Shown here piece by piece: positions 8,188 to 47,657 of a stretch of DNA of 64,000 bases; the first letter of the stretch is position 1; each line of letters begins with the position of its first letter. The DNA lies in IMG/VR virus record IMGVR_UViG_3300028840_002190. One strand, given 5' to 3'. The stretch comes from a virus. Below the pieces are notes generated by a model. That model saw nothing but the letters and a program-made list of their open reading frames with translations. It was not told the origin of the DNA and searched no databases. The position numbers and the translations under genes are program-made.

Positions 8188-8823
8188 CTACCTTCTCCAA
8201 ACATAAACCTCATTCCCTCGCTTCTCCTGAACGAAGACTTGAGTCTTGAGTTTGTTCTTCATGATCTCATCGAACCGCGCACCCAATGTGTTATGCGGCT
8301 CACCCCACTCAGGATGGTCATTCCGAATAGCCTGATAGATCTCCGAACGCGGAACTGCCCGAGACGAGTCGACAGCGCCGACTTTACCCAGGTACTTCCG
8401 AGCTGCATTAAGAAACTTGTTGCGGCGCGAAGGCTGCTTGTAGGGGTCCTTCGTCAACTTAACGCGCACATCCCCAGGGAGATTAGAGTCCTGCATCTTT
8501 ACGCCTTCTACACCGCCTGAACGCATGGCAATAAGGAATTCCTCGATCCGGGCCGCCGGAAGGACTTGCTGTAACTCCGAGCATGCGGTGTACGTTCTCT
8601 TGTTCAGAACCTTTTTGACGTCTCTGAATCCAGGAGACGCATCAGGGACTAACTGCAGCGGAGCTGTCGACGTCGCCTGCTCCTTTAGGGCGTCTAGTTC
8701 TTGTAACTGCTTCCGTGCAGCGGCGAGCGCTGTTTCGAGCCGCGAGATCTCCTCTTCGACGGAATCGCGGTCCTTCTGCCATCGAGCGTTATCGAACGCA
8801 ACATAGTCTTTCAATGTAACCAT
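8188..8823 (-). CDS. coiled-coil plus possible winged-HTH protein
   Basis: N-terminal heptads; basic C-terminal domain. Confidence 0.55.
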   Translation of the reverse strand: MVTLKDYVAFDNARWQKDRDSVEEEISRLETALAAARKQLQELDALKEQATSTAPLQLVPDASPGFRDVKKVLNKRTYTACSELQQVLPAARIEEFLIAMRSGGVEGVKMQDSNLPGDVRVKLTKDPYKQPSRRNKFLNAARKYLGKVGAVDSSRAVPRSEIYQAIRNDHPEWGEPHNTLGARFDEIMKNKLKTQVFVQEKRGNEVYVWRR

Positions 8824-9245
8824 CACATCGTCCCTTCTTTGCTAGGCCAAACGTACGGAAGGTCATCCGGCACATTCCAGCCGAACTGCTCATAGTGCTC
8901 CGGATACTTACGGAGTAAATTCGATTGGTGAGACTCGTGGAACTTCTCGTTGCCGAACCACGGCGGCATCTCGATGCGCCAGATGGTGTACGTGGCGTCT
9001 ATCGGCATCGTGTTGTTAAAGCCCCGACTTATCCACTCTCGTATCATGGCGTTAGCGTAAGCAGACAACGCCTCCTCGTAGCCTGCCCACATCTTCACTG
9101 CGGGGTGATTACGCCAGCGCTCACTACCGTGGCCTCGTAGAGCGTCGAGTATCTGACGAGCTTCTACTCTCTGCTTTCCTAGGCGTTTATTGTCTAGACA
9201 ACGCGCGGACTCGTAGAAGTCAGGCAACGGAAGGAATGTTTGCAT
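8823..9245 (-). CDS. pyrimidine-dimer DNA glycosylase (DenV/MSMEG_6728-like), copy 1
   Basis: MQTFLP...LDNKRLGKQRVEA.QIL..L...W.NHPAV.MW. Confidence 0.8.
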   Translation of the reverse strand: MQTFLPLPDFYESARCLDNKRLGKQRVEARQILDALRGHGSERWRNHPAVKMWAGYEEALSAYANAMIREWISRGFNNTMPIDATYTIWRIEMPPWFGNEKFHESHQSNLLRKYPEHYEQFGWNVPDDLPYVWPSKEGTM

Positions 9246-14610: not shown

Positions 14611-15700
14611 GGCGGTCCTCCTCGAATGAAACTACCAAACTACACAGAGCACAAAACTCCGGTACCACACATCAGATTTCTGATATAAATTTCTAGCACG
14701 TAAACACGAACACAGCAACACTTTAAGGCAAAAGTAGCGTGGCTATTGTGTTAGTAGGAAGAACAGATTATCCAACGTGTTTCGGAATAACGAGGGTCTG
14801 CAACCCTACGATCTATCCCAACACCCCCGCAACCCAACCGCAACACCGGCGCAACCCAAACGTACCAATCAAAATCTAGACACCACGGCATACGATTTCA
14901 TGTACCTAGAGTTCGGCACTTTCCCCCCTCCCCCGGTAGGCTAGTCCACTATCTTATATCGTTCAACAGCATACATTTCCCCAAACGTCACTTTCCAACG
15001 GGGTACTATATGTATATTAATCTGTTAACTAGCTGATTTCACTGTAACAAAACAACTCGTGTAGTTTCTCATAACCCACTTCGTCAGAATTATGAATACA
15101 CTAGAGAAAGTAAAAAAACGACTCCTACTCTTACCTACATATATCCTATCTACCTACAGATATAATATAGCTAGTATAATCGGTAACTTAACTGACGCAA
15201 CAATGTACGATATGCTAACAACAATCTCTCATATATTCAGATATAATCCCCTTATATTATTATAAACTAGAGTACCTCTTTTATTATTATTATATATAAC
15301 GGCAACTTAGCACTTCTACCCTGTTATACATTTAACGATGTAACTCACCCCTATCATCCATTTTTGTTTTAAATTGGGGGGTCCAGGGGGGGCGGGCCAA
15401 CCGCCCGCAACCGCTCAGCTTTTTCCACGCACTACCATGATTTGTACGGTATATCCAACATATCGCGATAATATCGAAGATATCGGCATACTGTACTACA
15501 TGTCAGTGTAGCAATGGCGCGGGTTTCCGCGTATCCTACATACCAAACTGGAGGATCTTAATTTACAGTGTCAGCAGCCAAAAACAGTGTTTTAGGGCTA
15601 TTATCGCTTCCCTATCTTATTCTTTGCTTTTTCACTAACAAAGAAACCACGACACTTATCCCTCTCGCCTTACTCCCCCAACACTTTCCCGTGTTCTCTT
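14611..15700. other. AT-rich non-coding region, candidate replication origin
   Basis: ~1.1 kb without credible ORFs; AT-rich core ~14980-15375, G-poor on the plus strand, then G6-TCCA-G7 tracts. Confidence 0.55.
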
Positions 15701-31975: not shown

Positions 31976-31988
31976 ACTGTCCTCCTTG

Positions 31989-32062
<74 letters not shown>

Positions 32063-32309
32063 GGTGTGTCGCTGTTTTCGTAACGTCCGCTATTGTACTT
32101 CACTGGATGCTAACGATGTCCATTCTGCAACCATGGTGATCCAGGGGTGAATCGTGACAACTCTTCAGAGTTGGCGCGATGAACATCACATGGTTGCTTC
32201 GTAGTGTGCATCCAGTGATAGCGGACAGAGCGAATATGCGTGCACAGAATACACGCGATTCGAGAAAGTATCTTTCTCTTTGAGCGCTCCGACTCAAACC
32301 CACACTTTG

Positions 32310-32394
32310 TACCAGGGACGGGAATCGAACCCGTACGGAGTTACCTCCACAGGATTTTAAGTCCCGTGCGTCTACCTAGTTCCGCCACCCTGGC
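32310..32394 (-). tRNA. tRNA-Leu(UAA)
   Basis: long variable arm; CGGGA-CTTAAAA-TCCTG. Confidence 0.95.
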
Positions 32395-34313: not shown

Positions 34314-34772
34314 TTACTTGGCTGCCGTGGCCTGCTCCAACAAGAAAATTCCGGTGCCTCCGCTGTTCAAAAAAACAGGGATGTCTGCAACTCCGAACGG
34401 CCCAGCTCCTATGCCGGTACTCCCCACTATCCCAGGAGTATTCCACTTGACACCCGCAGGTCCTGATACGTATAGCGCCTGGCCTGAAGGAATAGCGAAG
34501 GGGCCTCCCATTAACCGGATGGACGCGAATCCCCACCGCGGAACGAGCAGGTACACGACATCCAATAGCGTCAAGGTCGATGTAGGGCTATCCCAAGACA
34601 TGTCCCCGTAGGTTTGAGGCCCCAAAATGATGCCGATACGCTGCTGCGTCATCATGATCTCGATATCGAGATCCGACATCTGACCTTCGTATTGCTCGTC
34701 CCACGGATCGAGATCTGCAGCGGGATACCGAATGTTCAAGTTGGAAGTGTATCTGTAGTTCGGGTCAGCCAT
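34314..34772 (-). CDS. MADP-family putative fibre/appendage protein 3
   Basis: MADPNYRYTSNLNIRYPAADLDPWD. Confidence 0.65.
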   Translation of the reverse strand: MADPNYRYTSNLNIRYPAADLDPWDEQYEGQMSDLDIEIMMTQQRIGIILGPQTYGDMSWDSPTSTLTLLDVVYLLVPRWGFASIRLMGGPFAIPSGQALYVSGPAGVKWNTPGIVGSTGIGAGPFGVADIPVFLNSGGTGIFLLEQATAAK

Positions 34773-34783
34773 CTTTCACTCCT

Positions 34784-35257
34784 TTAAAGCGTAGACGGGT
34801 ATGCGAAATGGTCTTGAATGCCCATGACGAATGCGCCTGCGATGTGAAGACCGAATACTACTTGCCCTCTAACGTAAGCGGCAGGGGCGGTAGGCGTCAC
34901 AAACAACTCAGCAGCACCTATAGCGTACGTACTGTCCCAAGGGATATCCTCAGGGACGTTCATCAACACGTAGTTGTCGGCTGGAACTACAAGAGGAGTG
35001 GCCCCGTCACCCCATGTAAAGACACCGCCAAAGATGGGACACAGCATTGTGAACCCATTGATGGTGAGCGTGGTCGACGCAGTGTCCCACTCTATCTTGC
35101 GCCCAACGAACGCCAATCGTGCCGACTGCATGGCGAAAAGGATGGTCACGTCAAGTCGGTCCATCTGCTCGATGTACTTGTCATCCCACGGATCGAGATC
35201 CTTCGCAGGATACGATAAGTGGAGATTCGAAGTTACTCTGATATCAGGATCAGCCAT
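34784..35257 (-). CDS. MADP-family putative fibre/appendage protein 2
   Basis: MADPDIRVTSNLHLSYPAKDLDPWD. Confidence 0.65.
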   Translation of the reverse strand: MADPDIRVTSNLHLSYPAKDLDPWDDKYIEQMDRLDVTILFAMQSARLAFVGRKIEWDTASTTLTINGFTMLCPIFGGVFTWGDGATPLVVPADNYVLMNVPEDIPWDSTYAIGAAELFVTPTAPAAYVRGQVVFGLHIAGAFVMGIQDHFAYPSTL

Positions 35258-35270
35258 GACTCAGCACTCC

Positions 35271-35765
35271 TTACGGGAACGAAATGGTACGCGATGTCGT
35301 CCTGAGGAGGAACGCGATCTCTCCAGGCATGGACCCGTCGTAAACTAATAGCGGGATGCGTCTCTCGTTGGGTTCATAAGTAGACATGTCTGCGGTGAAT
35401 ATTCCGTTCGCGGCCCACATACCTGTACCTCTCCACCAAGGGTTAGGCGATGCTGAACCGACATCAACATACGCAAGTTGTGAAGGCGATACCGCGAGGC
35501 TCGTGGGGCCAAGGGTGATGACTCCCCCGGTAGCAGAGACATACAGACGGATGTTACCGTTGACTGTAAGCTGAGAACCATTCCACGTCAGATAAGTGTT
35601 TAAATCCCCTGCATCCACCAAAACAGTACCGATATTGACCGAATAGGCCAGCCACTTTTCAAGATCATTCATCTGCTGGATGATCTGCTTGTCATCAGGT
35701 ATCAGGCCCGTGTTCGGGTACTTGAGCCTAAGATATTCAGTTTGTCGGGTGCTTGGATCGGCCAT
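35271..35765 (-). CDS. MADP-family putative fibre/appendage protein 1
   Basis: MADPSTRQTEYLRLKYP; TATACTT at 35799-35805. Confidence 0.65.
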   Translation of the reverse strand: MADPSTRQTEYLRLKYPNTGLIPDDKQIIQQMNDLEKWLAYSVNIGTVLVDAGDLNTYLTWNGSQLTVNGNIRLYVSATGGVITLGPTSLAVSPSQLAYVDVGSASPNPWWRGTGMWAANGIFTADMSTYEPNERRIPLLVYDGSMPGEIAFLLRTTSRTISFP

Positions 35766-36319: not shown

Positions 36320-37087
36320 CTATTGGTTTTCGTACAGCCGACCGGCGAGGTGTCCGTATCCGCGTTCGTAAAGATCGGAGAGGGTGTTTGCACGTTCGCG
36401 CGCTTCCCGCATCCCTTCGAGGGTACCTTCGCCTCCACCGAGAGCAGCTCCAGCAATCTGGGATTGGAGACGTGAGCTAGTGTCCTCATCCTCACCACCC
36501 CCGAGACCACCCAAAGCGGCTCCTGAGAGAGCACCTTCGAGTCCACGCTCCGTCATGAGCTCCTTCATGAGCCCTTCACGAATGTCTCCGTACTCTTGGG
36601 GTGTGAGCGGCTGCGCCGTCTGCTCTTGGATACCGCGAGCATGCGGTACGAGCCCCTCATGCGTGCCGTAAGGCATATGACGCGGAACGCGACCTTCCTG
36701 AGCAATCTCACCGAGGGTTGTCCCCCAACGCTTTCCGTGACGCTCAGCACCGCTACGGCGCGATAAACCGCTCAAGGCACCAAGCCCACCGCCCCCGAGG
36801 AGACCCAGGCCGCCTCCGATGAGCGCACCCTTTCCTCCTCCGAGTCCGTATCCGAGGCCGCCTCCCAAGAGTCCTCCGAGGCCACCCCCGACGATGCCTC
36901 CCGTGGTGGGAGCATCACGGTGACGTTCGTAGCCTTCTTGGCCCTTCATCTTGGAAAACGCCTGGATCTCCTCAGGAGTAATTTCACGCCGCTTATTCCC
37001 CGTGAGGGCTGCGGCGATATCTTCTTCCGTGATCTCAGCCAACTTGGTCATCACTTCGCGGTAACCTTGAACAAATGCGGGATGCAT
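36320..37087 (-). CDS. glycine-zipper protein with GY..KLA leader
   Basis: MHPAFVQGYREVMTKLA; long GGLGGLLGGG zippers; TATACTT at 37115-37121. Confidence 0.75.
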   Translation of the reverse strand: MHPAFVQGYREVMTKLAEITEEDIAAALTGNKRREITPEEIQAFSKMKGQEGYERHRDAPTTGGIVGGGLGGLLGGGLGYGLGGGKGALIGGGLGLLGGGGLGALSGLSRRSGAERHGKRWGTTLGEIAQEGRVPRHMPYGTHEGLVPHARGIQEQTAQPLTPQEYGDIREGLMKELMTERGLEGALSGAALGGLGGGEDEDTSSRLQSQIAGAALGGGEGTLEGMREARERANTLSDLYERGYGHLAGRLYENQ

Positions 37088-37123
37088 GGGGGAACCTCCT
37101 TCAAAGTTCCTCACAAGTATAGT

Positions 37124-37906
37124 TCAAGAGACCTCTACAATCCAAGGAGAATATGTCTTGTTTCTCTGGAAGTAGTAGCCGTGCTGGTTACAGACGAAAC
37201 GCGTTTCGAAGTACGTAACGTCCACGCGAGGACCGTGGTCATGCCCGTAGACCCACAGCTCAGGCTCGTACCGGTCTATGATCCTGGAGAGATCGGATTC
37301 GAAGGCTGCACGCGTGAGCGTCTTCAAGAACTTCGGAGGGTGTAGCTGTTTAAGAGGGGCGCAGTGGGTCACTACGACCGTGGGTCGGCGCTTGTTTCGT
37401 GTAGCCAGTGCCTCCTCGAGCCACTCACGACAACGCATATGCTCTCGCGTCCAGACGAAGGGAGTCATCGGTCCATAATCCCCGCGAACCTTTATGGCGG
37501 GTGCTCTCTCCTTCGAATCGATTTTGAAGTCCGTAATGGCCGTCTGAACAGCCAAGGCATCAAGAGGGTTGCTGATGTCCGACCAGAGAGTCGTACCTAG
37601 AAACTGAACACGCGAGATTGTTTGCATGTCCTTTTCTAGGAGGTAGACCGCAGGGAACTCGGCGACGACTTTTCGGTATTCGTCCAGTGCGTCCGGGAAG
37701 TACCTGCCGTAGTACTCGTGGTTTCCCAAGACGTAGACGATGGGAATGTGCTTCTGCTTGAGGATCCTACGAAAGACTTTACGCAGACTGGCAGGCTTCT
37801 TGTGGATGTCGCCCGCCAAAACCAGCACTTCAGCGTCAGGATGGACTTCGATCTTCGTCTTCGAGTGGAGCTCCAGATGGAAGTCCGAGGCGATTTGAAT
37901 TTTCAT
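37124..37906 (-). CDS. calcineurin-like metallophosphoesterase
   Basis: SDFH, AGDI, GNHE, THCAP, GHDH. Confidence 0.9.
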   Translation of the reverse strand: MKIQIASDFHLELHSKTKIEVHPDAEVLVLAGDIHKKPASLRKVFRRILKQKHIPIVYVLGNHEYYGRYFPDALDEYRKVVAEFPAVYLLEKDMQTISRVQFLGTTLWSDISNPLDALAVQTAITDFKIDSKERAPAIKVRGDYGPMTPFVWTREHMRCREWLEEALATRNKRRPTVVVTHCAPLKQLHPPKFLKTLTRAAFESDLSRIIDRYEPELWVYGHDHGPRVDVTYFETRFVCNQHGYYFQRNKTYSPWIVEVS

Positions 37907-37930
37907 CTTCGAGCTCCTTTGTTTTGAGAT

Positions 37931-38251
37931 TTACCTCGTAAAGTCCAGCTTGGTCTGGCGCGGGTCGTCTGGTATCGGAGGCCCAAGGTCTTCTTCCTGA
38001 GTCTCTGGAGTCCGGAAATCCAGCTCCTCTGGGATCGTCCAGAGTCGAGGCAGCTTCTCTACTTCAGTTACGCTGTCAATGTCGGGGTGGTCGCTCGCGA
38101 AGTCGTCTAGGTCCCAACCCGAGTACGCCTCTACTATGTCTGTTATGTCAGGAGCTACGTTGTCTCTAGCTGAATCCTTGGTGTCTGCGTACACGTAGAC
38201 TTCAGCTACTTCCACCGCCGTGCGTGATACTTTAACTTTGAACATCGGCAT
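37931..38251 (-). CDS. hypothetical acidic protein
   Basis: GGAGG RBS. Confidence 0.55.
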   Translation of the reverse strand: MPMFKVKVSRTAVEVAEVYVYADTKDSARDNVAPDITDIVEAYSGWDLDDFASDHPDIDSVTEVEKLPRLWTIPEELDFRTPETQEEDLGPPIPDDPRQTKLDFTR

Positions 38252-38540
38252 CGCCGTCACCTCCCCTTGCTGCACGGGCTTTCTTTAGACGCTCCGCCAT
38301 GGCTGCTCGTTGCTCTTCCGAAATTTCTCGTTTGGTGTCCTCCTTGAGAACCGCGCCTTTGGCACGCGGATTATACCTCGACCAGTCGAAGTCAGGCTCT
38401 AATTTACGGTACGGCATCCAGCGGTAGAGAGAGCAGCTAGGAACCTCACAATCAACCTTGCCATCTTCGTACTGTCCGCAGCACTCGTGGCATTTTTTGA
38501 GCATAGCTTCACTGCGTCCTGGTCCTTTAGACTTGGCCAT
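38232..38540 (-). CDS. Zn-binding conserved phage protein
   Basis: KKCHECCG...DCEVPSCSLYRWMPY. Confidence 0.65.
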   Translation of the reverse strand: MAKSKGPGRSEAMLKKCHECCGQYEDGKVDCEVPSCSLYRWMPYRKLEPDFDWSRYNPRAKGAVLKEDTKREISEEQRAAMAERLKKARAARGGDGDADVQS

Positions 38541-38568
38541 GAGGTCACTCCTGTGGGTTTGTAAAAGT

Positions 38569-38890
38569 CCTCGTCTTTCCGAGGCGTCACCGGTTCCGTC
38601 CCTTGTCTGATAATGCTGTTCGCTCCTCCCACGGGCCCACCAAGACTGGGCCTTCTACTCTTGGCCTCAGCCTTCTAGGGAGGGTCAGTCACCGGAAACC
38701 ATCTCTCAAGCACTCTCACACTACTGTGATGGGAAGTATCCCACCCGTGGTTCTTGCCAGGGTATTGACTAAGCCTACATTCGTCCACTCGTCCGTAGGC
38801 TTAAGAGATACGCTGGCTTGAACCTGGGGTGGGTTCTTGCCGACTGCTAGTGACATAATTAGCCACTATGAGAACGTAACGTTCTCTGTC
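38569..38890 (-). ncRNA. candidate structured ncRNA (~320 nt)
   Basis: ORF-free, multiple helices, 3' CCTC-GGAAAGAC-GAGG hairpin shared with 45740. Confidence 0.5.
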
Positions 38891-38919
38891 TCGAGATGTA
38901 GTAGACACTAGTGTGGGAT

Positions 38920-39489
38920 CTAGACTTCTGGGTACTCGTACTCGACGAAGCAAAGCGCGACGTAGACCAGGCCGTACGCAGCGTCAACGATAATGTCCCG
39001 AGTGTAGTAGGTCACATCAACGATATCGAAAGTCCTCGGGTCTCCCTTGTACCGTCTTTCGACGATACCTTCGAGGTCCTTCTTGAGAATGGCCTTAGCT
39101 TTCTCTTTCGAACCGTGACCTTCGTACTCGGCGGCGAAACCCCCGAGGTGCTCGCGATTACCGTCATCGTCCACGACGTAAACTTGGCACGTACCGATAC
39201 CGGCACAGAGGTGCTCCCCCTCGACACCCTCCATCTGAGCTTTGATAGTTTCGAGCACTGCACCATGGTGGACCAACCCGAGCTTCTTAGCTTGCTCGAG
39301 CTTGATCTCCTTGGCTTCCGGCGGAAGAACGCTGGTGTACGTCATCACGTTGAAGTTTTCGATGCCGCCATCCAGGAGGGCCATATCATATGCGGAAGTC
39401 TCGTAGTGGTCAGAGCCCGTCTCAGCACTGGACTGCCCCGCACCGGAGGTTACGAAGTAGAGTGTAGGAATTCGACATTTGGTTCTCAT
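38920..39489 (-). CDS. pdaD: pyruvoyl-dependent arginine decarboxylase
   Basis: SAYDMALLDGGIENFNVMTYT-SVLPP self-cleavage region. Confidence 0.8.
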   Translation of the reverse strand: MRTKCRIPTLYFVTSGAGQSSAETGSDHYETSAYDMALLDGGIENFNVMTYTSVLPPEAKEIKLEQAKKLGLVHHGAVLETIKAQMEGVEGEHLCAGIGTCQVYVVDDDGNREHLGGFAAEYEGHGSKEKAKAILKKDLEGIVERRYKGDPRTFDIVDVTYYTRDIIVDAAYGLVYVALCFVEYEYPEV

Positions 39490-39794
39490 CTGTGTTTTCT
39501 CCCCTTCAGACGTTTCGTATTGATGTTGTTAGCTACCGGAATCATACGATCTCGCGCCACAGGATTGGCGGTGTGTACCCCTATAAAAGGCGCATAGTTG
39601 ACGTACTCGTGCGCACGCCGTTCGATGCGATAGAGGATGTCGTACCCAGTCTTGGTTCCTCCAAGATCGTGATCAAGACTGATAACATCAAAGTCCCAGT
39701 CGTTCTGCTCGAGGAGCTTCATCGCAGATTTGTAACTTTTGGCCCAGATCCAACCGTCGGGAGCGGGACGTACGTCGTCTACCCAGAGTTTCAT
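39486..39794 (-). CDS. cyclic-phosphate processing receiver-domain protein
   Basis: KLWVDDVRPAP..W...ISLDHDLG..TGYDIL...HTANP. Confidence 0.8.
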   Translation of the reverse strand: MKLWVDDVRPAPDGWIWAKSYKSAMKLLEQNDWDFDVISLDHDLGGTKTGYDILYRIERRAHEYVNYAPFIGVHTANPVARDRMIPVANNINTKRLKGRKHR

Positions 39795-40675
39795 CGCTTC
39801 TTTTTCTTACCTCGTTTAATCGGCTTCTTGGTGCCAGGGTCGGTTTTGAAGCTCATATCGAAGAAGCCCTTCTCGTCGCGCATGTCCTCGTCGGAGATTT
39901 CCAGGGTGTCAGGCTCACCGACACCCAGGACCCCCCCGATATATTGGGAGATCTCCTGGTAGACCTCGTAAGGATCTGCAACTTTCATGTAACCGACTTT
40001 ACGTAACGCATCGTTGACGTGGAGGGCCAGACATCCACGACCGTAGGGACCGTCCATCCTTCTCAATGTTATGATGGGAGACTTGAAGTGTTGGAAGAGC
40101 CGTGAGTCGTCTCTAGGCAGTCGCTTGTTGAAGAATGCCTCGAACTCTTCTCGATGCAGTTCGTAGATGTCACCGTCTTTTCTGTGTTTACGTTTCCGCT
40201 GTTCCTTCTTGGAAAGTTTAGCGTAATACAGTGTCCTGAGGCGCTTAGGGAACTTGTCTACGATTTTGTCAGCTTGTTGGACGTTGTACGCGAAATCCAC
40301 AGTGGCGTCGAAGTCGTCTAATGAACAGCTGTACCGTGCTTTATTCCCGTATCGGAACCGCAGGCAGGGGCGGATCTTGCCACACACTCCCACCACGAGG
40401 ATATTGACCGAAAAATGGAAAGAGTCTTCTCTTCCTTCGAGTTCAGCACGCCAACAGTTTTCCTGAGGTTCCCAGAAGAGGTCCATCCCGGGAGTCTCGA
40501 CGTCAACTTCCCCGTGGAGTTCTCCCTGGGCGGTTAAGTCGGTGTAGATTTTTCGAAGGGTGTCTCCCTCGTTGACGCCGTAGCGTGTAACCTTACGGAG
40601 ATACACGAGAGACAGATCGACACCGTGTGCTTGAACTGAGTCGTAGTAATCACGAAACTTCGAAATGATTCTCAT
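39791..40675 (-). CDS. conserved phage hypothetical protein
   Basis: MRIISKFRDYYD...AYQEISQYIGG...KGF pattern. Confidence 0.7.
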   Translation of the reverse strand: MRIISKFRDYYDSVQAHGVDLSLVYLRKVTRYGVNEGDTLRKIYTDLTAQGELHGEVDVETPGMDLFWEPQENCWRAELEGREDSFHFSVNILVVGVCGKIRPCLRFRYGNKARYSCSLDDFDATVDFAYNVQQADKIVDKFPKRLRTLYYAKLSKKEQRKRKHRKDGDIYELHREEFEAFFNKRLPRDDSRLFQHFKSPIITLRRMDGPYGRGCLALHVNDALRKVGYMKVADPYEVYQEISQYIGGVLGVGEPDTLEISDEDMRDEKGFFDMSFKTDPGTKKPIKRGKKKKR

Positions 40676-40690
40676 GTCGTTTTCCTTTCG

Positions 40691-40762
40691 AGGCCCGCGT
40701 TGGGATCGAACCAACGACCTGGTGGTTAACAGCCACCTGCTCTACCGCTGAGCTAGCGAGCC
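40691..40762 (-). tRNA. tRNA-Asn(GUU)
   Basis: GGTGG-CTGTTAA-CCACC; cloverleaf. Confidence 0.92.
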
Positions 40763-40852
40763 AACGCGCGAGTGCTGCCAATGGAGAGTCCTAAACAGTT
40801 GTTTTTGGTTACGGCAGCACCCGCGCAACATCCAAGTTTACATAGTAAAGCC

Positions 40853-41206
40853 TTAGGAGGCGACCTTCAAATCCTTCTCGGACACTCCCCTAATGTAGTC
40901 CTTGGCGCTGTCGATCCAGGACTGGATGTACAGCTCCTCACCGTCGAACCTCTTGGCGATCTTGGCGATCTCCTTGAAGTTGGGGGGACACTCGGTGTGT
41001 CTCTCGATGGCCTCGTACGGGACTCTACGCAGAAGCCCGTAGGCAAGTAGGTTGTCTCTTGCGGCCCAGCGCACAGTAGTAGTGCGATGGTGATTGAGAC
41101 GCCACTTGGCCATCCCGTTTACCTTCCGGGCTTCTTCCCGGATGGTGCGTGCTTCGTCTGCGAGGTTTTTGATTTTGACCCGAAGGTGGATTATTCGTTC
41201 GTTCAT
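40853..41206 (-). CDS. conserved phage hypothetical protein
   Basis: LRVKIKNLADEARTIR...LAYGLLRRVPYEAIE. Confidence 0.7.
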   Translation of the reverse strand: MNERIIHLRVKIKNLADEARTIREEARKVNGMAKWRLNHHRTTTVRWAARDNLLAYGLLRRVPYEAIERHTECPPNFKEIAKIAKRFDGEELYIQSWIDSAKDYIRGVSEKDLKVAS

Positions 41207-41334
41207 CGTCTTTCTCCTTGTTGGTGTTGTCTCCACGGGAACAGAGAAAGACGTGAAGGGGGGCCTCTAGCGGTTTTGTATTCAGGTGAATCTCATGTGC
41301 TTATCCTATTCATGGTTGCAGAGGATGTCAACTG

Positions 41335-41407
41335 CGCCCCCACCAGGACTCGAACCTGGAACGGCGTGGATTGAAAGCCAGCTACTCTGCCATTGAGTTA
41401 TAGGGGC
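41335..41407 (-). tRNA. aberrant tRNA-Glu-like (UUC) with distorted anticodon arm
   Basis: acceptor, D and T arms canonical; anticodon stem pairs only with an 8-nt loop plus a bulge. Confidence 0.6.
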
Positions 41408-42390
41408 TATGTGTTACAGATTCGGAATGTTGTGCTCGAGGTACGAGGGGATTATCTCATGACAGTTGCCACACGCTAAGACCTTTTCCTGCGTATGCTT
41501 CTGGATGTGCCACCATGGTGCGAGAATCGAGGACCCACACACCATGCACTTTCCAGGATTTTTGTACTTCACCTTCCTCTCTTCCCAGTGGTAAGTGGGT
41601 GTGATCCCTCTGGACCAATGCCAAAGCCCTTCGCTGATGGAAAAAACGTAAGCAAGGTACTCGTAAGTGTGTAGCGCGTAATGAGGGTCTTCGACAATCT
41701 CGATCTCTTCTATCGAGTTCTCTGCGTTACGTGTCCAGTTAGCAGTACCTCGTATAGCCGCCGTAGGGATGTACTTTCCACCTTTACCCGGCAATAGCCG
41801 CACCGCGTGTTTGAGGTGCATTAGTGGACTCGTCTCATTTTCTCTAAGCGGAGCACGGCTCCCTCGAAAATCTCCTACAAGACGTACGGCGTCTATCATT
41901 CCGTAGTCGTTTTGTCCGTCACGACGACTCAGGTGTGCAAAACAGTTACCCGGTAACTGGTTACGTCTCACGTAACAGACGAGATTGTTGTACGCCCGGG
42001 CAACGCGTAGTGTAGGGCGGAACTTATCCACAACTACTGCGCAGTTTCCGTGTTCTAACGCGTTGATGAGGTCTTTGTGTGTCAGGATATTGAGTCCTGC
42101 CAGGATCATCCCGTCAGCCCTGTTAGTCTCACGTATAAACTTAATAATTTCGTCCATGAAGTTTGCACGGTAACGCGTTACGTTTACGATCTTGGCGTAC
42201 GTACGTTTTTGCGGGAGTGACGGAGCTCCCCGCGTACCCGCGTAGGTGGCGAGGTCACTGTTAAAATTTTGGTCAGGTGCTGGACGACTGCTGGGAGTTG
42301 CCTCATACGTTTTCATTTCTAGACCTTTCTCTTGTGTCTCTAGACGCACTTTTAAGGATGTGCGCGTGTAACCTATTGAGTTATAGGGGC
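41392..42390. repeat. 16-bp direct repeat ATTGAGTTATAGGGGC at 41392-41407 and 42375-42390
   Basis: exact match; equals the first 16 nt of the tRNA-Glu-like gene; flanks the PLD ORF. Confidence 0.9.
41414..42316 (-). CDS. PLD-superfamily (Nuc-like) nuclease with C-terminal zinc finger
   Basis: LMHLKHAV...IRGTANWTRNAENSIE (HxK and GxxN motifs); CMVC...CGNC. Confidence 0.7.
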   Translation of the reverse strand: MKTYEATPSSRPAPDQNFNSDLATYAGTRGAPSLPQKRTYAKIVNVTRYRANFMDEIIKFIRETNRADGMILAGLNILTHKDLINALEHGNCAVVVDKFRPTLRVARAYNNLVCYVRRNQLPGNCFAHLSRRDGQNDYGMIDAVRLVGDFRGSRAPLRENETSPLMHLKHAVRLLPGKGGKYIPTAAIRGTANWTRNAENSIEEIEIVEDPHYALHTYEYLAYVFSISEGLWHWSRGITPTYHWEERKVKYKNPGKCMVCGSSILAPWWHIQKHTQEKVLACGNCHEIIPSYLEHNIPNL

Positions 42391-42720
42391 GTTTCCGAAG
42401 GTGTGCTACTACGCCAAAGACCTGTCTTCTACCCGGCGGCTATCTCCCGCTGTTCTACGCGTCGCCTACCGCCGAAAACACCGCGCAGAACACCAGCTGT
42501 AGCACGGCTGGAACACGCCCCCTGGACCTCAGACGTTTACCTTGCTCAAGGGCTCAATCTATTCGGATCCAGAGAGGGAGTACACTTGCAGCCTCAGGTC
42601 CAGTTTTTATTCGGCTAGTAACAAGCCGCCAACTAGCTGCCGGGCCTACGTGCCTCTGCGAAGATGGCGGGCCACTCTTTAAAGGATGGCTGCCTCTAAG
42701 CCAACCTCCCGCCAGAAACG
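42391..42720 (-). ncRNA. ncRNA containing a split 23S rRNA H43/H44 (L11-binding) mimic
   Basis: GGGAGGTTGGCTTAGAGGCAGCCATCCTTTAAAGAGT (42710-42674) plus GCGTAGTAGCACACC (42414-42400); ends paired. Confidence 0.75.
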
Positions 42721-42723
42721 CTG

Positions 42724-42797
42724 TCGGGGCGATAGGATTCGAACCTACGGCATCCAGCTCCCAAAGCTGGCGCGCTACCAGACTGCGCCACACCCCG
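42724..42797 (-). tRNA. tRNA-Pro(UGG)
   Basis: CCAGC-TTTGGGA-GCTGG. Confidence 0.95.
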
Positions 42798-42882
42798 TAA
42801 AAAAGAGCAGTGAGACGGAGTGGGGATGTGGGGGGAACATCCGGGGATTTCCATCTCACTGCTCAAGAGAATGATACTGCGA

Positions 42883-43269
42883 TTAGGTGCCGAAGAGAAG
42901 GGACGATGCTCGACGCGTAGCGTCTTGTAGCCATTCCTGAAGTTTTTCAGCTGCTTCCAAGTCGATACCTTCGTCCTTAGCCATCTTGGCAACCTCTTCC
43001 TGGATCTCTGCAACCTTGAGGAGGTTCTCTGCGTAGGTTCCATCCTGATCCTTCTCTAGCGGAGTAACCATGAAGTCCGGAACGACGGTAGGCGCATCTT
43101 GGTCCCTTCGGAGCATCCAAAGCTTCTCAGGATCGAGGGATATGGTTATACCCCGGTAGTGTACTTGATCTGTGTGCGTCTCCCTCACGGGGAACCTGAC
43201 AGAGATGCGGCACTGTCGTCCCGAGCTCGGGATGATGTTGATGATAGGTTCCCCTATGATGTACGCCAT
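42883..43269 (-). CDS. hypothetical protein
   Basis: GGAGG RBS right after the tRNA-Gln CCA. Confidence 0.6.
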   Translation of the reverse strand: MAYIIGEPIINIIPSSGRQCRISVRFPVRETHTDQVHYRGITISLDPEKLWMLRRDQDAPTVVPDFMVTPLEKDQDGTYAENLLKVAEIQEEVAKMAKDEGIDLEAAEKLQEWLQDATRRASSLLFGT

Positions 43270-43278
43270 GGTTCCTCC

Positions 43279-43354
43279 TGGATGGGGCAGAGGGACTCGA
43301 ACCCCCAACACTCGGCACCAAAAGCCGATGATCTACCAGTTGATCTATGCCCCA
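43279..43354 (-). tRNA. tRNA-Gln(UUG)
   Basis: TCGGC-TTTTGGT-GCCGA; encoded CCA. Confidence 0.93.
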
Positions 43355-43732
43355 AGAAAAAAAGGGGACAGGCGCCCCAGAGCTTGGATAGTCGGATATC
43401 GGGTAATCGCAGCCGCGCTTCTTCCAGCTTCATAACTTCCACTGAAAGCTAGATCGCGGCGTTTCGGTTGTTCGTGCAGTCGGTACAGTCGGACGTTCGG
43501 AGTTCGGCTGTTCACACAGTCGGAGTTCCTGGTCCATGAGACACGCCGTGTGAGGGCGCGTACCGTGTGGGGTGAGGCTTAAAAGGCCAATCCACATGGG
43601 CTGTACTTCATCTTTTTTCAAATGATGATATCGATCCGCAACGATGTCACCGGCGACACCTACGGCTTAGGGTGCCGTGCAAACCCTTGCTCTGCGCTAC
43701 GCCTGTCCTATGTAGTACGCTCTAGGAGCGTT

Positions 43733-44371
43733 CTACACCGAGAAGTTGTCGAGAACCGTCTTGGACACCTCGACCTGGGTGTCCCAGTTGGTCTTCTGGA
43801 TGCACGCGTCCACCTCCCGCAGCTTGCGCTGCAGCGTGTCGACGACCTGGAAGGGCTTGAGCTCCGAGGGAGCCTTGCGCTTGACCTTGGTCACCAGGTC
43901 CCCCAGACCGTCGGCGATGGGGACGCGCTCGGAGATCTCCTGGAAGAGCTCCTCCGCCGAGACGCGGAAGTTGTGGGGGGCCGGGGCGCGGCGGATGCGA
44001 TCCTCGAGCTCCTTGCGCCGGACGAGCAGCTCGGCCAGCTTGACGGTGGCGGGTCCCGTGGACGCGACCTCCTCGTCCGACATCAGGTCGTGGGTGACCT
44101 CGACGTCCGTGACCCAGTTGGCCTGCTGCACGACGCTGTCCGCGAGGCGCCGCTGGTGCGCGTAGTAGTTGGTCTCCTTCTCCAGGAGGCCCTTGTCCAC
44201 CAGGCTGACGTGACCGACCACCTGGTCGATCTCGTCGTTGACCTTGCGCCGCTGGACGCTGTCACGGGTGATACCCGCCTCCTGCGCTCCCAAGCGTCCG
44301 CTGAAGAGGGCGTTGAGCTCCTTACGACGCAGGAGCAGCTCAGCCAAGGCGATTTTCTTCTTGTCGGTCAT
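43733..44371 (-). CDS. tandem two-repeat DIP1984-like protein
   Basis: two copies of LAELL.RRKEL...D..(V/I)Q..NW.T.VEV; GC3-rich; GGTACAAG at 44431-44438. Confidence 0.65.
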   Translation of the reverse strand: MTDKKKIALAELLLRRKELNALFSGRLGAQEAGITRDSVQRRKVNDEIDQVVGHVSLVDKGLLEKETNYYAHQRRLADSVVQQANWVTDVEVTHDLMSDEEVASTGPATVKLAELLVRRKELEDRIRRAPAPHNFRVSAEELFQEISERVPIADGLGDLVTKVKRKAPSELKPFQVVDTLQRKLREVDACIQKTNWDTQVEVSKTVLDNFSV

Positions 44372-44453
44372 GATCCGTACCTCCTTCGTAGTTCTGAGAC
44401 GCGAAAGCGTCCGATAGGGGAAAGTACGGACTTGTACCTCCTTTGAGACTTGT

Positions 44454-44466
44454 TTTTCAAAGAGCA
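44454..44466 (-). promoter_or_regulatory. rrn-type boxA-like motif TGCTCTTTGAAAA
   Basis: matches the rRNA antitermination boxA pattern; second copy at 45568-45580. Confidence 0.55.
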
Positions 44467-44599
44467 CTCTGTAGGAAGCAAGGCTCCCATTACACCTTAT
44501 TACAGACTATTGCGCGCCCACCTGTGGTCTGAACATGAGTACCACATGCCCGTCAGACCCTACCGTGCAGGTACTTGGTCTAGTCTCGCGCACCGATAG

Positions 44600-44673
44600 T
44601 GACCCCGGCGGGGCTCGAACCCGCAATCTTCGGCGTGAAAGGCCGATGTCCTAAACCATTAGACGACGGGGCC
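44600..44673 (-). tRNA. tRNA-Glu(UUC)
   Basis: TCGGC-CTTTCAC-GCCGA. Confidence 0.95.
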
Positions 44674-44902
44674 AAAATAAGGAGAAGGCTGCCCGGGACT
44701 TCGTGAAGTAACCAGACCGAAGACATCGACCATCCGGACCTTCTCCTGACTACGTTAACAAAGGGGGAGTACTTATAGCCTGCGCCCTCCCCAGGCGCAT
44801 GCGTCTTTTGCTTCTCGGACTCAACGCAACTTGTCCCGGTATTGTACCTTATTTTGTATAGCGACAAAGAAGCCCATCGCTTTTTCACAGCTGCCAACTG
44901 TG

Positions 44903-45288
44903 TGGTGGAGCCGCCGGGAGTCGAACCCGGGTCCGCCTACGGGTCATGTACTGATCTTCACGTGTGTGGTCTCCCTTTTCGTTTCAGACGGTGACTTCCG
45001 AGAGACGAGTCATCACGGTCTTACTGCGCTTTCGTTTACCCGGCGTCATCGCGCAGAACTCAGCCTGGGTTTGCCCGTGTAATTACGCCCCCTGGGTTAC
45101 TCGAGCTCCTCACTCAGGGCACGCCCGCGCCGTTTAAGCGGCCACGGCGAGCGGACTCGCCATGGGGGTCGGGAAGGGAACTACGTTGTCGGCAGTTCGA
45201 GTTGAGTGTCCTTTTTAACCCGCCGAACACACAAGGCGGAACACGCACAGTACACTTCCATCGCACACGTCGAAACCGTGTCGGCCCC
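44903..45288 (-). ncRNA. ssrA: tmRNA; tag ADNVVPFPTPMASPLAVAA*
   Basis: 5' GGGGCCGACACGGTTTCGAC; 3' GGTTCGACTCCCGGCGGCTCCACCA; tag ORF 45193-45134. Confidence 0.95.
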
Positions 45289-45431
45289 ATGAGAAGGATC
45301 TAAGTTGCCATGGTGTCCTCCAATCTGTTGGTCCCTACCAGGGGTGCGTGCTCTTGCCATCAGTCCGAGAAGGTTATCCGAGGGTTATGAGCCCCCCGAC
45401 TCCCTCAAGGTCCGGACTCGAGCGCGGGTTT

Positions 45432-45567
45432 ATTGGTCTTTCCTAGTAGCTCCTCGAGGCAGCGGGAGTCGGTCCGAGTTTACGGACTCACAACTTCCAT
45501 CACCAAGGCGCTTCCCGTTTCCTTGGTTGCTGAGGAGCCCTACAAGGAGCTACTAGGAAAGACCAAT
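45432..45567. repeat. perfect 23-bp inverted repeat enclosing a 90-nt structured segment
   Basis: ATTGGTCTTTCCTAGTAGCTCCT / AGGAGCTACTAGGAAAGACCAAT. Confidence 0.9.
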
Positions 45568-45580
45568 TTTTCAAAGAGTA
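45568..45580 (-). promoter_or_regulatory. rrn-type boxA-like motif TACTCTTTGAAAA
   Basis: immediately 5' of the 23-bp stem on the minus strand. Confidence 0.55.
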
Positions 45581-45661
45581 CGCCTCCTACCTTACTCCTC
45601 CAGAGGACCTAGGAATCTGGAGTTTCATCCATGCCTCCACTCCAATACCTCGGAGACGTGA

Positions 45662-45734
45662 TAGCGGGGACCGGATTCGAACCGGCGTGACGGGATTATG
45701 AGTCCCGCGACTGAAACCACTCGTCTACCCCGCA
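45662..45734 (-). tRNA. tRNA-Met(CAU), initiator-like
   Basis: CGGGA-CTCATAA-TCCCG; unpaired 1:72. Confidence 0.9.
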
Positions 45735-45739
45735 TCAAT

Positions 45740-45908
45740 GCCCGTCTTTCCGGGCTGTCCGCTCTAACCAGGACCTCCCCTTATCCGGCCTTACAGTAGC
45801 ATGCCCGACCGGCATTTGGGTATTCGACCTGGACGTCAGCGACCCGCTAACACGAACCCACTGACAGCTGCGATGACCTACGAGCAGCGTCCTGTAGGTC
45901 AGGGCATC
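45740..45908 (-). ncRNA. candidate structured ncRNA (~170 nt)
   Basis: starts just after GGTAAAAG (45914-45921); several stems; ends GCCC-GGAAAGAC-GGGC. Confidence 0.5.
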
Positions 45909-46071
45909 AGCTTCTTTTACCAGGTAATGTGAGGCTTTTCAATTCTTGCGGGGGAGGGGATCTGTGACAGGCTTGCCCTTGCGCGCACGGTGACGGCGCC
46001 ACTTTTCGAGGTCTCTCTTCTTGGGAGGCTTCGCAGGAAGGTTAACCGTCGGTCGACGGTAGATGGTGGGT

Positions 46072-47016
46072 TCACCCATAATAGAAGCCCGCATACGGAT
46101 CATTGACGTAACGTCGGTCATGGGGACTGAAGCCTTCACGCTCAGGGCCGCCCATGGCCTCAACACGCTCCATGGTTTCACGCTCCTTCTGCTTCGCCTT
46201 CTTGGCGGCGATAGCAGCGAGAAGGATCGCACCCACGGTTGCTCCGGCGAACGGGGCCACTTTCTTGCCCTTCTCAAGACCCTCAATGATCTTCTCAGTG
46301 ATGTGGATCTTACGCCGCAGACTCTCTTGGCCAATATCTAGGATAGGGTCGATGACTTTCTTACCTGCGTAATACCCACCGAGGCCCCCCGCGGCACCGG
46401 CGACCCAGGGCATCGCACCACTCTCGAGAAACGCGACTTTATGCAGAAGGGTAGCGACTTTCATCTCGGCAGATTCTCCCGTATACGCTTGAGTCTTGGC
46501 GCTGTTCTTCGGAGGCTTGGGCACGTCAGGCATCCCCCCGCTGGTGCTCATGGGGGCGGGCATCTTCGGAAACTTGGCGGGTTTCGGCGTCACGGGTGCG
46601 TTTGGGGTATAGTCGAAGTTTGCTCCAAACTTGTACGCTTCGAGCTGAGCTGCTTGCTCTTTCAGCGCCTTGTCGTTCTTCGCAGAATCGATCCACGCTT
46701 TCCCTAGGAGTCCTGCACCCACAGCGCCTCCAAGAAGGCCCGCACGTCGCAGCCAGCGATACTTGCCTGGTTGGGACCAAAGACGACGAACCTTGCCTAC
46801 CGTGTGGTGCTTGACCTTCTGCGCCGTACTCGGACCCGTACCCTTGATGACTTCTTTCTCCATCGCAGGGTGGGGTCCGGGGGTACTTCCTGACATCCGC
46901 ATGCCAGGAGTGAAGTCCGAGATGCCTCGAGCTTGAGCCAACTCTTTCTCTCGCTGCAGCAGGCGCTCGTACAGCTCGTCATGGCCGCCCAACGCTAGTT
47001 TCTCGAGTGTACGCAT
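46072..47016 (-). CDS. glycine-zipper protein with KxA motifs (putative internal virion protein)
   Basis: MRTLEKLA, LHKVA; three hydrophobic Gly-rich helices. Confidence 0.7.
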   Translation of the reverse strand: MRTLEKLALGGHDELYERLLQREKELAQARGISDFTPGMRMSGSTPGPHPAMEKEVIKGTGPSTAQKVKHHTVGKVRRLWSQPGKYRWLRRAGLLGGAVGAGLLGKAWIDSAKNDKALKEQAAQLEAYKFGANFDYTPNAPVTPKPAKFPKMPAPMSTSGGMPDVPKPPKNSAKTQAYTGESAEMKVATLLHKVAFLESGAMPWVAGAAGGLGGYYAGKKVIDPILDIGQESLRRKIHITEKIIEGLEKGKKVAPFAGATVGAILLAAIAAKKAKQKERETMERVEAMGGPEREGFSPHDRRYVNDPYAGFYYG

Positions 47017-47021
47017 TTATC

Positions 47022-47657
47022 CTACATCCCCGTGTTACTCAGTGTCACCGCGTAGGGAGTCTGTGCCGAGGCGCTCGTGAGAGGTACTCCCTGGAGGAGG
47101 GGCCGGTTGTACGGCTGCTCGCTTTTCAGGGCCTCTTTTAGTGCATTTCTCTGTAAAACGCGCTCAGCAAGCAGCCCCCGCGATACCTGGCGTGCCTGGC
47201 GCTCTCGTTGGTCTCCTTTGGCGCCCCAGAGAGCGCTCCCAGTCAGTAACCCAGCCCCGGCACCGAGCAGTGGGAGGAGTTTCACTGAGAGCGGAAGGTT
47301 CTTGAGACCTTTGAGACTTCGGTTCTTCAACAGCCCCTGTTCCAGCATCTCTTTGAAGGGGGCCGTAGTAGCCTTCCCGCCGAGACCACGAGCCAGGACA
47401 CCTCCTCCGATACCTCCAGCGAGGGCGCCTCCCGCAGCTGGGCGCAATAACCCACGAGACCTCTCGGACTTAGCGAGGTCGTCTACAGTTTGCCCCTCGT
47501 GGAGTCCCCGAGCCATGCGCTCGACCATGGAACGGGGAGCCCACTCGGACATTCCGGTGAGCCTCTCCTGGTAATTCGGAGTACCCGCAAAGGTGAACGG
47601 GATTCCAGAAGGCCGGAACCAGATACCACCTGCGTGTTTCAGTAGTCCTTCACTCAT
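47022..47657 (-). CDS. glycine-zipper protein with KxA leader
   Basis: MSEGLLKHAG; TATAATT at 47667-47673. Confidence 0.7.
   Translation of the reverse strand: MSEGLLKHAGGIWFRPSGIPFTFAGTPNYQERLTGMSEWAPRSMVERMARGLHEGQTVDDLAKSERSRGLLRPAAGGALAGGIGGGVLARGLGGKATTAPFKEMLEQGLLKNRSLKGLKNLPLSVKLLPLLGAGAGLLTGSALWGAKGDQRERQARQVSRGLLAERVLQRNALKEALKSEQPYNRPLLQGVPLTSASAQTPYAVTLSNTGM

Follow-up and report, generated by a model that had tools for sequence, protein, structure and literature searches.

A probably modular tRNA and tmRNA array in an uncultured phage carries a copy of the 23S rRNA GTPase-associated centre

Results

A dense array of translation-related RNA genes

The stretch of DNA analysed here (the window) covers 64,000 nt of the 122,991-bp (~123 kb) contig of an uncultured phage, IMG/VR record IMGVR_UViG_3300028840_002190, and has a GC content of about 55%. 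A segment of about 9 kb within it (37124-46000) is unusually dense in translation-related RNA genes: it holds tRNAs, a transfer-messenger RNA (tmRNA) and a covarying copy of the uL11-binding GTPase-associated centre of 23S rRNA. The reading we favour, at a probability of roughly 60%, is that this is a modular, indel-prone accessory translation-support array of a large phage, in which co-oriented tRNA and tmRNA genes have gathered stable non-coding RNAs and small enzyme genes at an indel hot spot, and in which the RNA products act separately. The initial annotation had described the same segment as one integrated, largely RNA-based operon resembling a ribosomal RNA operon (rrn).

Every real gene between 37 and 47 kb, and every feature listed below, lies on the minus strand; the long open reading frames (ORFs) on the plus strand lie opposite minus-strand genes with family matches and are their shadows. 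Proteins are encoded by about 62% of 37124-46000; confirmed RNA genes make up about 13% and further candidate RNA about 11%, so that the phrase "largely RNA-based" was an overstatement. Six tRNA genes (46-67 bits) and a full-length tmRNA are agreed upon by ARAGORN and Rfam, as had been proposed. The claim of at least three other structured RNAs is also borne out, by 43355-43732 (z -4.8, with compensatory changes), 38714-38919 (z -6.1) and 45432-45567 (z -9.1). These fold z-scores compare candidate stretches with shuffles; five coding controls gave values of -0.9 to +2.0.

Megablast found no close relative of the 9-kb stretch among 50,697 deposited phage records, and a distant blastn search gave matches to tRNA genes only. 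Relatives were sought with the proteins p307, p314 and DUF6847 as queries, with two DNA patterns and with one metagenome scan, all of which led to a single related lineage. Its contigs L001, L170, L171 and L173 are the same or near-identical, and we refer to it as L170. Another contig, L172, has just the tmRNA ends in common with the window. The RNA genes, candidate RNAs and motifs of the array are as follows.

38541-38919, minus strand: 379-nt non-coding spacer (z -5.2)
38714-38919, minus strand: long imperfect hairpin domain (z -6.1; second fold z -4.76)
40690-40762, minus strand: tRNA-Asn (GUU) (ARAGORN; Rfam 65.8 bits)
41334-41407, minus strand: tRNA-Glu (UUC) copy 2 (ARAGORN; Rfam 45.6 bits)
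42391-42720, minus strand: GTPase-centre mimic, 330-nt RNA (23S identity, local match to the Rfam large-subunit (LSU) model, family model)
42723-42797, minus strand: tRNA-Pro (UGG) (ARAGORN; Rfam 67.2 bits; 91.6% identity to L170)
42799-42864, minus strand: terminator-like 15-bp hairpin with a C-rich loop, then T6, 1 nt before tRNA-Pro (inverted repeat I13; z -8.3)
43279-43354, minus strand: tRNA-Gln (UUG) (ARAGORN; Rfam 62 bits)
43365-43712, minus strand: RNA-2, structured RNA of about 345 nt (z -4.8 for 43355-43732; compensatory changes relative to L170)
44454-44465, minus strand: boxA-like motif 1, GCTCTTTGAAAA, 83 nt upstream of the DUF6847 start codon
44599-44673, minus strand: tRNA-Glu (UUC) copy 1 (ARAGORN; Rfam 66.3 bits)
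44674-44790, minus strand: conserved spacer preceding tRNA-Glu copy 1, with a 9-bp stem around a hairpin (79% identity to L170)
44903-45288, minus strand: tmRNA (Rfam RF00023, 110.5 bits, cut-off 47; model positions 1-374, full length)
45289-45433, minus strand: 145-nt tmRNA leader, directly upstream of the tmRNA and conserved like the tmRNA itself
45432-45567, minus strand: perfect 23-bp stem around 90 nt with two inner hairpins (inverted repeat I2, 100% complementary; z -9.1)
45568-45579, minus strand: boxA-like motif 2, ACTCTTTGAAAA, abutting the 23-bp stem
45662-45734, minus strand: tRNA with a CAU anticodon, of Met or Ile2 type (ARAGORN; Rfam 54.8 bits)

A free-standing copy of the GTPase-associated centre

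The 330-nt mimic is made up of a closing helix like helix 42 (H42) of 23S rRNA, helix 43 (H43) with the 1067 loop, a 260-nt structured insert, and helix 44 (H44) with the 1095 loop. At 42673-42709 it is identical over 37/37 nt to H43 of the 23S rRNA in more than 90 genomes; the identity reaches 37-38 nt and then ends. The core 31-mer has an exact match in at least 120 genomic contigs, and the bacterial LSU model of Rfam aligned 42666-42710 to model positions 1095-1146 (local E 1.1e-5). The 23S identity and the LSU match uphold the earlier call of an rRNA GTPase-centre mimic. No other family in Rfam 15 matches it; the family to which it belongs is not in Rfam 15, and no description of that family was found in the literature searched.

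A degenerate H43 pattern was found in 45 IMG/VR contigs, 43 of which have rRNA similarity over just 36-77 nt; the remaining two are a true 23S gene and a 109-nt 23S-like contig end. The H44 hairpin motif GGCGUAnnAGCACAC lies 46-339 nt downstream of H43 in nearly all family contigs, and in the window the distance is 260 nt and the hairpin departs from the family motif at 1 position. The family comprises 33 distinct members, including those of phages pf16, XacN1 and GAP32. Its closing helix forms 8.39/10 pairs within a member as against 5.15 between members (the control), and the helix at the base of the insert 4.39/6 pairs as against 2.78, the window copy having 9/10 and 5/6 respectively. When 15 members were aligned, 97% of the cells were paired and the covariation score was 0.376 against 0.131, a value that 0/500 shuffles reached; seven pairs are altered on both sides. 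The pair 1058-1080 is G-C in 6/15 members, A-U in 5/15 and U-A in 4/15. A family model (R1), built from a seed without the window copy, scores the window mimic at 78.6 bits (E 1e-23) and finds exactly one copy, in an unannotated gap, in each of the complete genomes of Pseudomonas phage pf16, Xanthomonas phage XacN1 and Cronobacter phage GAP32. None of these three phages encodes uL11, so any uL11 partner of the mimic would be that of the host. The 260-nt insert of the window shares its architecture with that of L137, an AT-rich 171-kb contig, with 14 compensated pairs, six of them consecutive. A sarcin-ricin-loop copy was also considered for the insert; it is not in the window copy and is present in just 1/33 members.

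Comparison with the 23S GTPase-associated centre (the top of H42, H43 and H44; E. coli ~1051-1108), the domain that binds uL11 and thiostrepton, shows what has been kept. The 37 identical nucleotides of H43 include the 1067 loop, the H44 loop retains the equivalents of U1094, A1095 and A1098, and the same holds for the closing pairs and for the G-C pairs in H44. In contrast to the rRNA domain, the mimic is free-standing, outside any ribosome, with its own 11-bp closing helix and with the 260-nt structured insert between H43 and H44. Some differences from 23S rRNA are fixed across the family: past H44 an A replaces U, giving GCACAC against the GCUCAC of the Rfam 23S consensus, and AAAGAGU is followed by an additional helix. 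Loop positions 1096/1097 are variable. The window copy has the same core, the same closing helix and the same place among tRNA genes as the other members, its insert being among the longer ones. For about half of the members, the immediate neighbour is a tRNA gene of the same orientation; in the window the mimic begins 2-3 nt past tRNA-Pro and ends right where a 16-nt copy of the tRNA-Glu 5' end starts. Among the mimic loci examined, only the window copy has tmRNA and boxA in one array, and only there is the mimic followed by a truncated tRNA 5' end and an inserted ORF. It would seem most likely that the mimic binds host uL11 or a factor aimed at the uL11/GTPase-factor site.

tRNAs and tmRNA

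The tag frame of the tmRNA is at the usual place (45134-45193) and translates as ADNVVPFPTPMASPLAVAA, with a hydrophobic, Ala-rich tail and then a stop. In L170 the tag is ADNVVPFPTPMATPVARAA, the codon changes being silent and conservative. ARAGORN called a different tag (GQTQAEF...), which is placed within the pseudoknot region and has very probably been miscalled, as happens with the tmRNA of the relative too. The tmRNA and its leader lie in a 548-nt block with 92.7% identity to L170, as against about 70% for the flanking genes, and the leader alone is 93-95% conserved. No Rfam family matches the leader, and a search for a tRNA-like fold in it with ARAGORN at relaxed thresholds yielded nothing beyond noise.

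The phage makes low use of the codons that its tRNAs read (AAA 30%, GAA 34%, CAA 29%, CCA 9%, TTA 5%), and this modest usage does not discriminate between codon supply and tRNA replacement. The Lys(UUU), Glu(UUC), Gln(UUG) and Asn(GUU) tRNAs of the phage belong to known target classes of anticodon nucleases. Replacement of cleaved host tRNAs by phage tRNAs has been published (PMC10264068, PMC11555353). A pair of further tRNA genes, for Leu(UAA) and Lys(UUU), is found on the minus strand at 31988-32394, 5 kb outside the 9-kb stretch. The 246-nt spacer of this pair has about 82% identity to L170 against a background of about 70% and may be a further conserved RNA.

boxA motifs and the 23-bp stem

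The boxA sequence CTCTTTGAAAA occurs exactly twice in the 64 kb, where about 0.03 exact matches would be expected; both copies are on the minus strand and inside the array, each as part of the 22-nt repeat D10. They are equal to a real rrn leader boxA, and the boxA motifs of the initial annotation thus stand. The 12-mer GCTCTTTGAAAA is found 126 nt upstream of the 16S rRNA in a Rokubacteria metagenome-assembled genome (L027) and at an equal offset in the rrn loci L032, L041 and L071; it matches, letter for letter, the rrn leader boxA of Rokubacteria and NC10. L170 has this 12-mer as well, at a distance of 92 nt upstream of its DUF6847 homologue and between flanks that cannot be aligned. As far as the sequences go, this conservation of position of motif 1 shows selection and not a mechanism. 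Motif 2 directly precedes the perfect 23-bp stem, an order that recalls the boxA and long processing stem of an rrn leader, although the phage stem surrounds 90 nt which are not an rRNA and motif 1 stands before a protein gene. Motif 2 is within a 228-nt segment (45434-45661) that is missing from L170, as is the stem element. The latter was considered as a repeated mobile element, but it is present in a single copy in the window and was not found in IMG/VR.

The identity of these motifs to the rrn boxA of Rokubacteria and NC10 is only a hint that the host belongs there. The tmRNA was also tried as a guide to the host; four genomes with the same boxA and H43 sequences were compared, and their tmRNAs are not really similar to that of the phage.

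Other structured RNAs

RNA-2 has a long-range closing helix of about 22 bp, a near-invariant 5' domain and a U-run end with a terminator-like site at 43365-43378. Relative to L170, 10/68 predicted pairs are changed on both sides, four of them in the closing helix, in which none is broken. Its centre (43440-43560, minus strand) consists of about eight consecutive GAAC/GACU-N4 units of 7-9 nt, retained in L170, which could form a repeated platform for protein binding. RNA-2 has no match in Rfam, and neither has the spacer at 38541-38919. Part of this spacer (38541-38713) belongs to a segment, 38326-38713, that has 74.6% identity to L170, where a tRNA-Leu gene takes the place of the hairpin at 38714-38919. 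The hairpin at 42799-42864 is also found in L170, after the homologue of o142, with a stem that has changed and remains complementary and with the same loop motif.

Protein genes of the array

The protein genes of the array are the following.

37124-37906, minus strand: calcineurin-like metallophosphoesterase, 260 aa (Pfam Metallophos 1e-11; phrog_1649 1.6e-42; 70% homologue in L170)
38232-38540, minus strand: Cys-rich (Zn-ribbon-like) protein, 102 aa (ORF; 66% homologue in L170; no family match)
38920-39489, minus strand: putative pyruvoyl-dependent arginine decarboxylase, 189 aa (Pfam PvlArgDC, PF01862, 1.4e-25, profile positions 1-160/161)
39486-39794, minus strand: cyclic-phosphate-processing receiver (cRec) domain protein, 102 aa (Pfam cREC_REC 4.7e-25; phrog_1479 1.6e-25)
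39791-40675, minus strand: p307, 294 aa (phrog_4243 5.6e-22)
41414-42316, minus strand: orphan ORF, 300 aa, possibly PLD/HKD-like, with a C-terminal Cys cluster (pattern by eye; language-model lead)
43733-44371, minus strand: DUF6847 protein, 212 aa (Pfam DUF6847 4.5e-9; 58% homologue in L170)

The family matches of the metallophosphoesterase, the receiver domain and the decarboxylase agree with what had been annotated. The genes for p307, cRec and PvlArgDC are chained by overlapping ATGA stop and start codons, with the stop of p307 overlapping the start of cRec and the stop of cRec that of PvlArgDC; ORFs also start 10-15 nt past tRNA-Gln and tRNA-Asn. The full-length match to PF01862 makes the decarboxylase a putative enzyme, of which tblastn found no homologue in L170. 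Homologues of cRec are found in L170 (72%), in L124/L151 and in L154, while proteins distantly related to p307 are encoded by Xanthomonas phage XaC1 and Stenotrophomonas phage DLP_6. The DUF6847 protein is internally duplicated (repeat D2).

The cRec domain is predicted to open cyclic phosphates, and together with the metallophosphoesterase it would be expected to act on cyclic-phosphate ends (PMC7824862). In L124/L151, an unrelated mimic-bearing phage, a phosphoesterase homologue directly follows the cRec gene and the pair is about 10 kb from the mimic; in the window the two genes are not adjacent. Set against the RNA repair cassettes (Pnk with Rnl1/Rnl2 of T4, bacterial Pnkp-Hen1 and the RtcB type), the phage has possible end-healing enzymes in the calcineurin-like phosphoesterase and cRec. 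However, neither an RNA ligase nor a polynucleotide kinase turned up among the ORFs compared with Pfam or PHROGs, a set that did not include the smaller ORFs and the rest of the 123-kb genome. The combination that marks RNA repair, end-healing enzymes together with an RNA ligase, was thus not found in the scanned ORFs, and because of this the "repairs" of the initial annotation is weak, even though cRec and the phosphoesterase are present.

A probably inserted ORF next to the mimic

The 300-aa ORF at 41414-42316 had been annotated as a PLD nuclease. It has no sequence match in Pfam, PHROG or PDB, so that no hidden Markov model confirms this assignment, and the language-model lead to PLDc_2 (0.87) is under the reliability level of 0.9. 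By eye it has an HxK...GTxN pattern (HLK...GTANW), of which H, K, G and N are retained in a homologue of 50% identity. This homologue and the ORF itself are its only relatives among 5.8 billion proteins, and an AlphaFold2 model from the two-sequence alignment was unusable (pLDDT 40). The ORF is bounded by an exact 16-nt direct repeat (41392-41407 and 42375-42390), which duplicates the first 16 nt of tRNA-Glu copy 2, and is not in L170. It is probably a selfish, endonuclease-type insertion. Because the second copy of the 16 nt starts right at the end of the mimic and bounds the ORF, the ancestral order was probably tRNA-Pro, mimic, tRNA-Glu copy 2, later split by this insertion.

Comparison with the related lineage

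The initial annotation had looked to synteny in related phages. In L170 this is partial: the relative retains the series tRNA-Met, leader, tmRNA, tRNA-Glu, boxA, DUF6847 and RNA-2, together with tRNA-Gln, o142, tRNA-Pro, cRec, the Zn-ribbon-like protein and the phosphoesterase, but other parts are missing or replaced. It is without the mimic, the PLD-like ORF, PvlArgDC, o127, tRNA-Asn, most of p307 and the 228-nt insert of boxA and stem, and it has extra tRNAs and a different, frameshifted inserted ORF. A truncated tRNA-Glu copy 2 (nt 1-53) follows directly after its tRNA-Pro. At 14710-14790 (plus strand) of L170 a deletion joins these 53 nt to the last ~30 codons of the p307 homologue, having removed the 3' half of tRNA-Glu copy 2, o127 and tRNA-Asn. 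The same array holds a different selfish-looking ORF at a different site in each phage.

The inserted ORF of L170 lies between RNA-2 and tRNA-Gln (13360-13843, plus strand) and is split by a frameshift. Pfam gives a weak HTH match at its N-terminus. At the C-terminus the pattern HH...N...CxxCH resembles HNH on inspection by eye, but an HNH call has no backing from Pfam.

The mimic itself is not tied to tmRNA, which is absent from 34 other mimic loci and, at the Rfam cut-off, from five whole mimic-bearing records. Together with the parts missing from L170, this speaks against the proposal that the elements form one integrated, co-inherited system.

Other features of the window

The proteins of the window are mostly orphans, and the few that can be named are phage-typical, with several PHROG families among them. 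A PurZ-like adenylosuccinate synthetase (phrog_1211 7e-50; Pfam Adenylsucc_synt 1e-38) is encoded at 4419-6514 (minus strand), adjoining a phrog_2971 gene; given this gene, the phage DNA may carry 2-aminoadenine (Z) instead of adenine. A DenV-like pyrimidine-dimer DNA glycosylase (Pfam Pyr_excise 3e-24) lies at 8823-9245 (minus strand). Three tandem paralogous genes at 34314-35765 (minus strand) encode proteins of 152-164 aa, each opening with MADP...YPA.DLDPWD. The array is flanked, at 36320-37114 and 46072-47657 (minus strand), by genes for three Gly/Ala-rich proteins with long GG(L/A)G runs and no family match. At 45939-46079 (minus strand) a very basic 46-aa ORF (MGEPTIYRRPTVNLPAKPPKKRDLEKWRRHRARKGKPVTDPLPRKN), whose start overlaps the stop of the preceding 314-aa gene, is kept in L170 with mostly silent changes; it has no family match.

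Discussion

From the genes, motifs, covariation and pattern of indels we infer how the array might be transcribed and processed, what its products may bind and what protective role, if any, it could have. Host RNA polymerase would transcribe it starting from the tRNA-Met side, and the two boxA motifs would load the host NusB/NusE antitermination complex, letting the untranslated stretches (tRNA-Met to tmRNA, and DUF6847 to RNA-2) escape Rho and pass the internal sites of hairpin and U-run. RNase P and the tRNA 3'-end enzymes would excise the tRNAs and tmRNA, and the same cuts would release the mimic that lies flush with them, while the long terminal helices (23, 22 and 11 bp) may protect or mark the other RNAs. 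The tRNAs would then top up or replace those of the host, the tmRNA would rescue stalled ribosomes, and the 330-nt mimic would offer a free-standing uL11/GTPase-factor site. cRec and the phosphoesterase would probably process cyclic-phosphate ends.

Several observations weigh against our reading of the array or narrow what it can claim. The fold z-scores of the window mimic and of the tmRNA leader are about 0, as is that of the spacer at 44674-44790, where a single compensated pair (CTTCG/CGAAG to CTTTG/CAAAG) gives weak support. Most of the RNAs specific to the window are represented by two sequences or by folding energy, there being one related lineage. Simple codon supplementation is not clearly supported, codon use being low. 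Motif 1 stands ahead of a protein gene, which is not an rrn arrangement, and that the boxA motifs bind NusB/NusE is suggested by identity of sequence only. A single functional operon, too, would account for genes that overlap and share one orientation.

Such an operon, of rrn type and antiterminated, would repair the host translation apparatus through cRec and the phosphoesterase, replace parts of it through the tRNAs and tmRNA, and offer decoys through the mimic when abortive-infection ribotoxins or the stringent response strike. We think this unlikely. It is true that all parts are packed tightly on one strand, that the boxA sequence equals that of the rrn leader and that a 23-bp stem comes after one of the copies, as it would in an rRNA operon. 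To this extent the rrn-like character proposed in the initial annotation stands, but two hairpin and U-run (terminator-like) sites and one promoter-like site (scoring 10/12) inside the stretch argue against one obligatory transcript. The target classes of the four tRNAs named above would suit such a system, as would the pairing of cRec and phosphoesterase in a second mimic-bearing phage. The concept of tRNA replacement (PMC10264068) and the predicted processing of 2',3'-cyclic ends by cRec (PMC7824862) would do so too. Against this, L170 retains some of the parts without the others, the mimic has never been seen beside a tmRNA at the other 34 loci, ligase and kinase were not found in the scanned ORFs, and the protein-coding 62% includes PvlArgDC, DUF6847 and p307, which have no link to translation. 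A miniature version, NusB/NusE-antiterminated and rrn-like, in which the mimic titrates host uL11, RelA or a site-directed defence factor while replacement tRNAs and tmRNA sustain translation during host shutdown, likewise strikes us as improbable.

We are just as doubtful of an ordinary codon-supplementing tRNA cluster whose spacers, hairpins and PLD-like ORF are functionless recombination debris or selfish DNA. The heavy indel traffic relative to L170, which there destroyed tRNA-Glu copy 2 and p307, would fit it, and so would the 16-nt duplication, the lineage-specific 23-bp-stem element and hairpin at 38.7 kb, and the z-scores near 0 of several spacers. Debris would, however, hardly be expected to include a mimic from a covarying family retained by distant phages, a closing helix in RNA-2 with four compensated pairs and none broken, a tmRNA leader conserved at 93-95% beside genes at about 70%, or a boxA conserved between diverged flanks. 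It is very improbable indeed that the rRNA-like piece is no more than a dead remnant of host 23S rDNA that illegitimate recombination brought in. Although its 37 nt are identical to many real 23S rRNAs, the similarity ends exactly at the edges of H43 and returns 260 nt on at H44, the flanks form a closing helix of their own that covaries over 33 members, the family has its fixed differences from rRNA, and no other rRNA similarity is found within the 9 kb. A modular array with separately acting RNAs is the reading that we retain.

Clusters of tRNA and tmRNA genes are familiar from large phages, among them the T4 tRNA region, where two stable RNAs without an assigned function and the homing endonuclease SegB are encoded, and the tRNA and tmRNA arrays of cluster C mycobacteriophages. 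The array described here is like these in its co-oriented tRNAs, interleaved small ORFs, extra stable RNAs, endonuclease-type inserts, phage tmRNA and variable content. It differs from them in adding a copy of the 23S GTPase centre, boxA of rrn type, a 345-nt covarying RNA, cRec, the phosphoesterase and PvlArgDC, none of which we found described inside a phage tRNA array in the literature searched. L170 is a caution here: since phage tRNA arrays gain and lose cassettes quickly, co-location within one is weak evidence of a common function.

Phage tRNA clusters have been known for fifty years, and the non-tRNA RNAs within them are mostly unexplained. The window sets side by side a mimic from a widespread, apparently undescribed RNA family, a covarying RNA of about 345 nt, a conserved tmRNA leader and a boxA identical to that of rRNA operons. 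Working boxA sites would mean that phages borrow the machinery with which the host antiterminates its rRNA operons in order to transcribe long arrays of untranslated RNA. Should the mimic bind uL11, or a factor directed at its site, it would be a novel, RNA-based way of interfering with the control of host translation; its function can be tested in cultured phages that carry it, namely Pseudomonas phage pf16, Xanthomonas phage XacN1 and Cronobacter phage GAP32.

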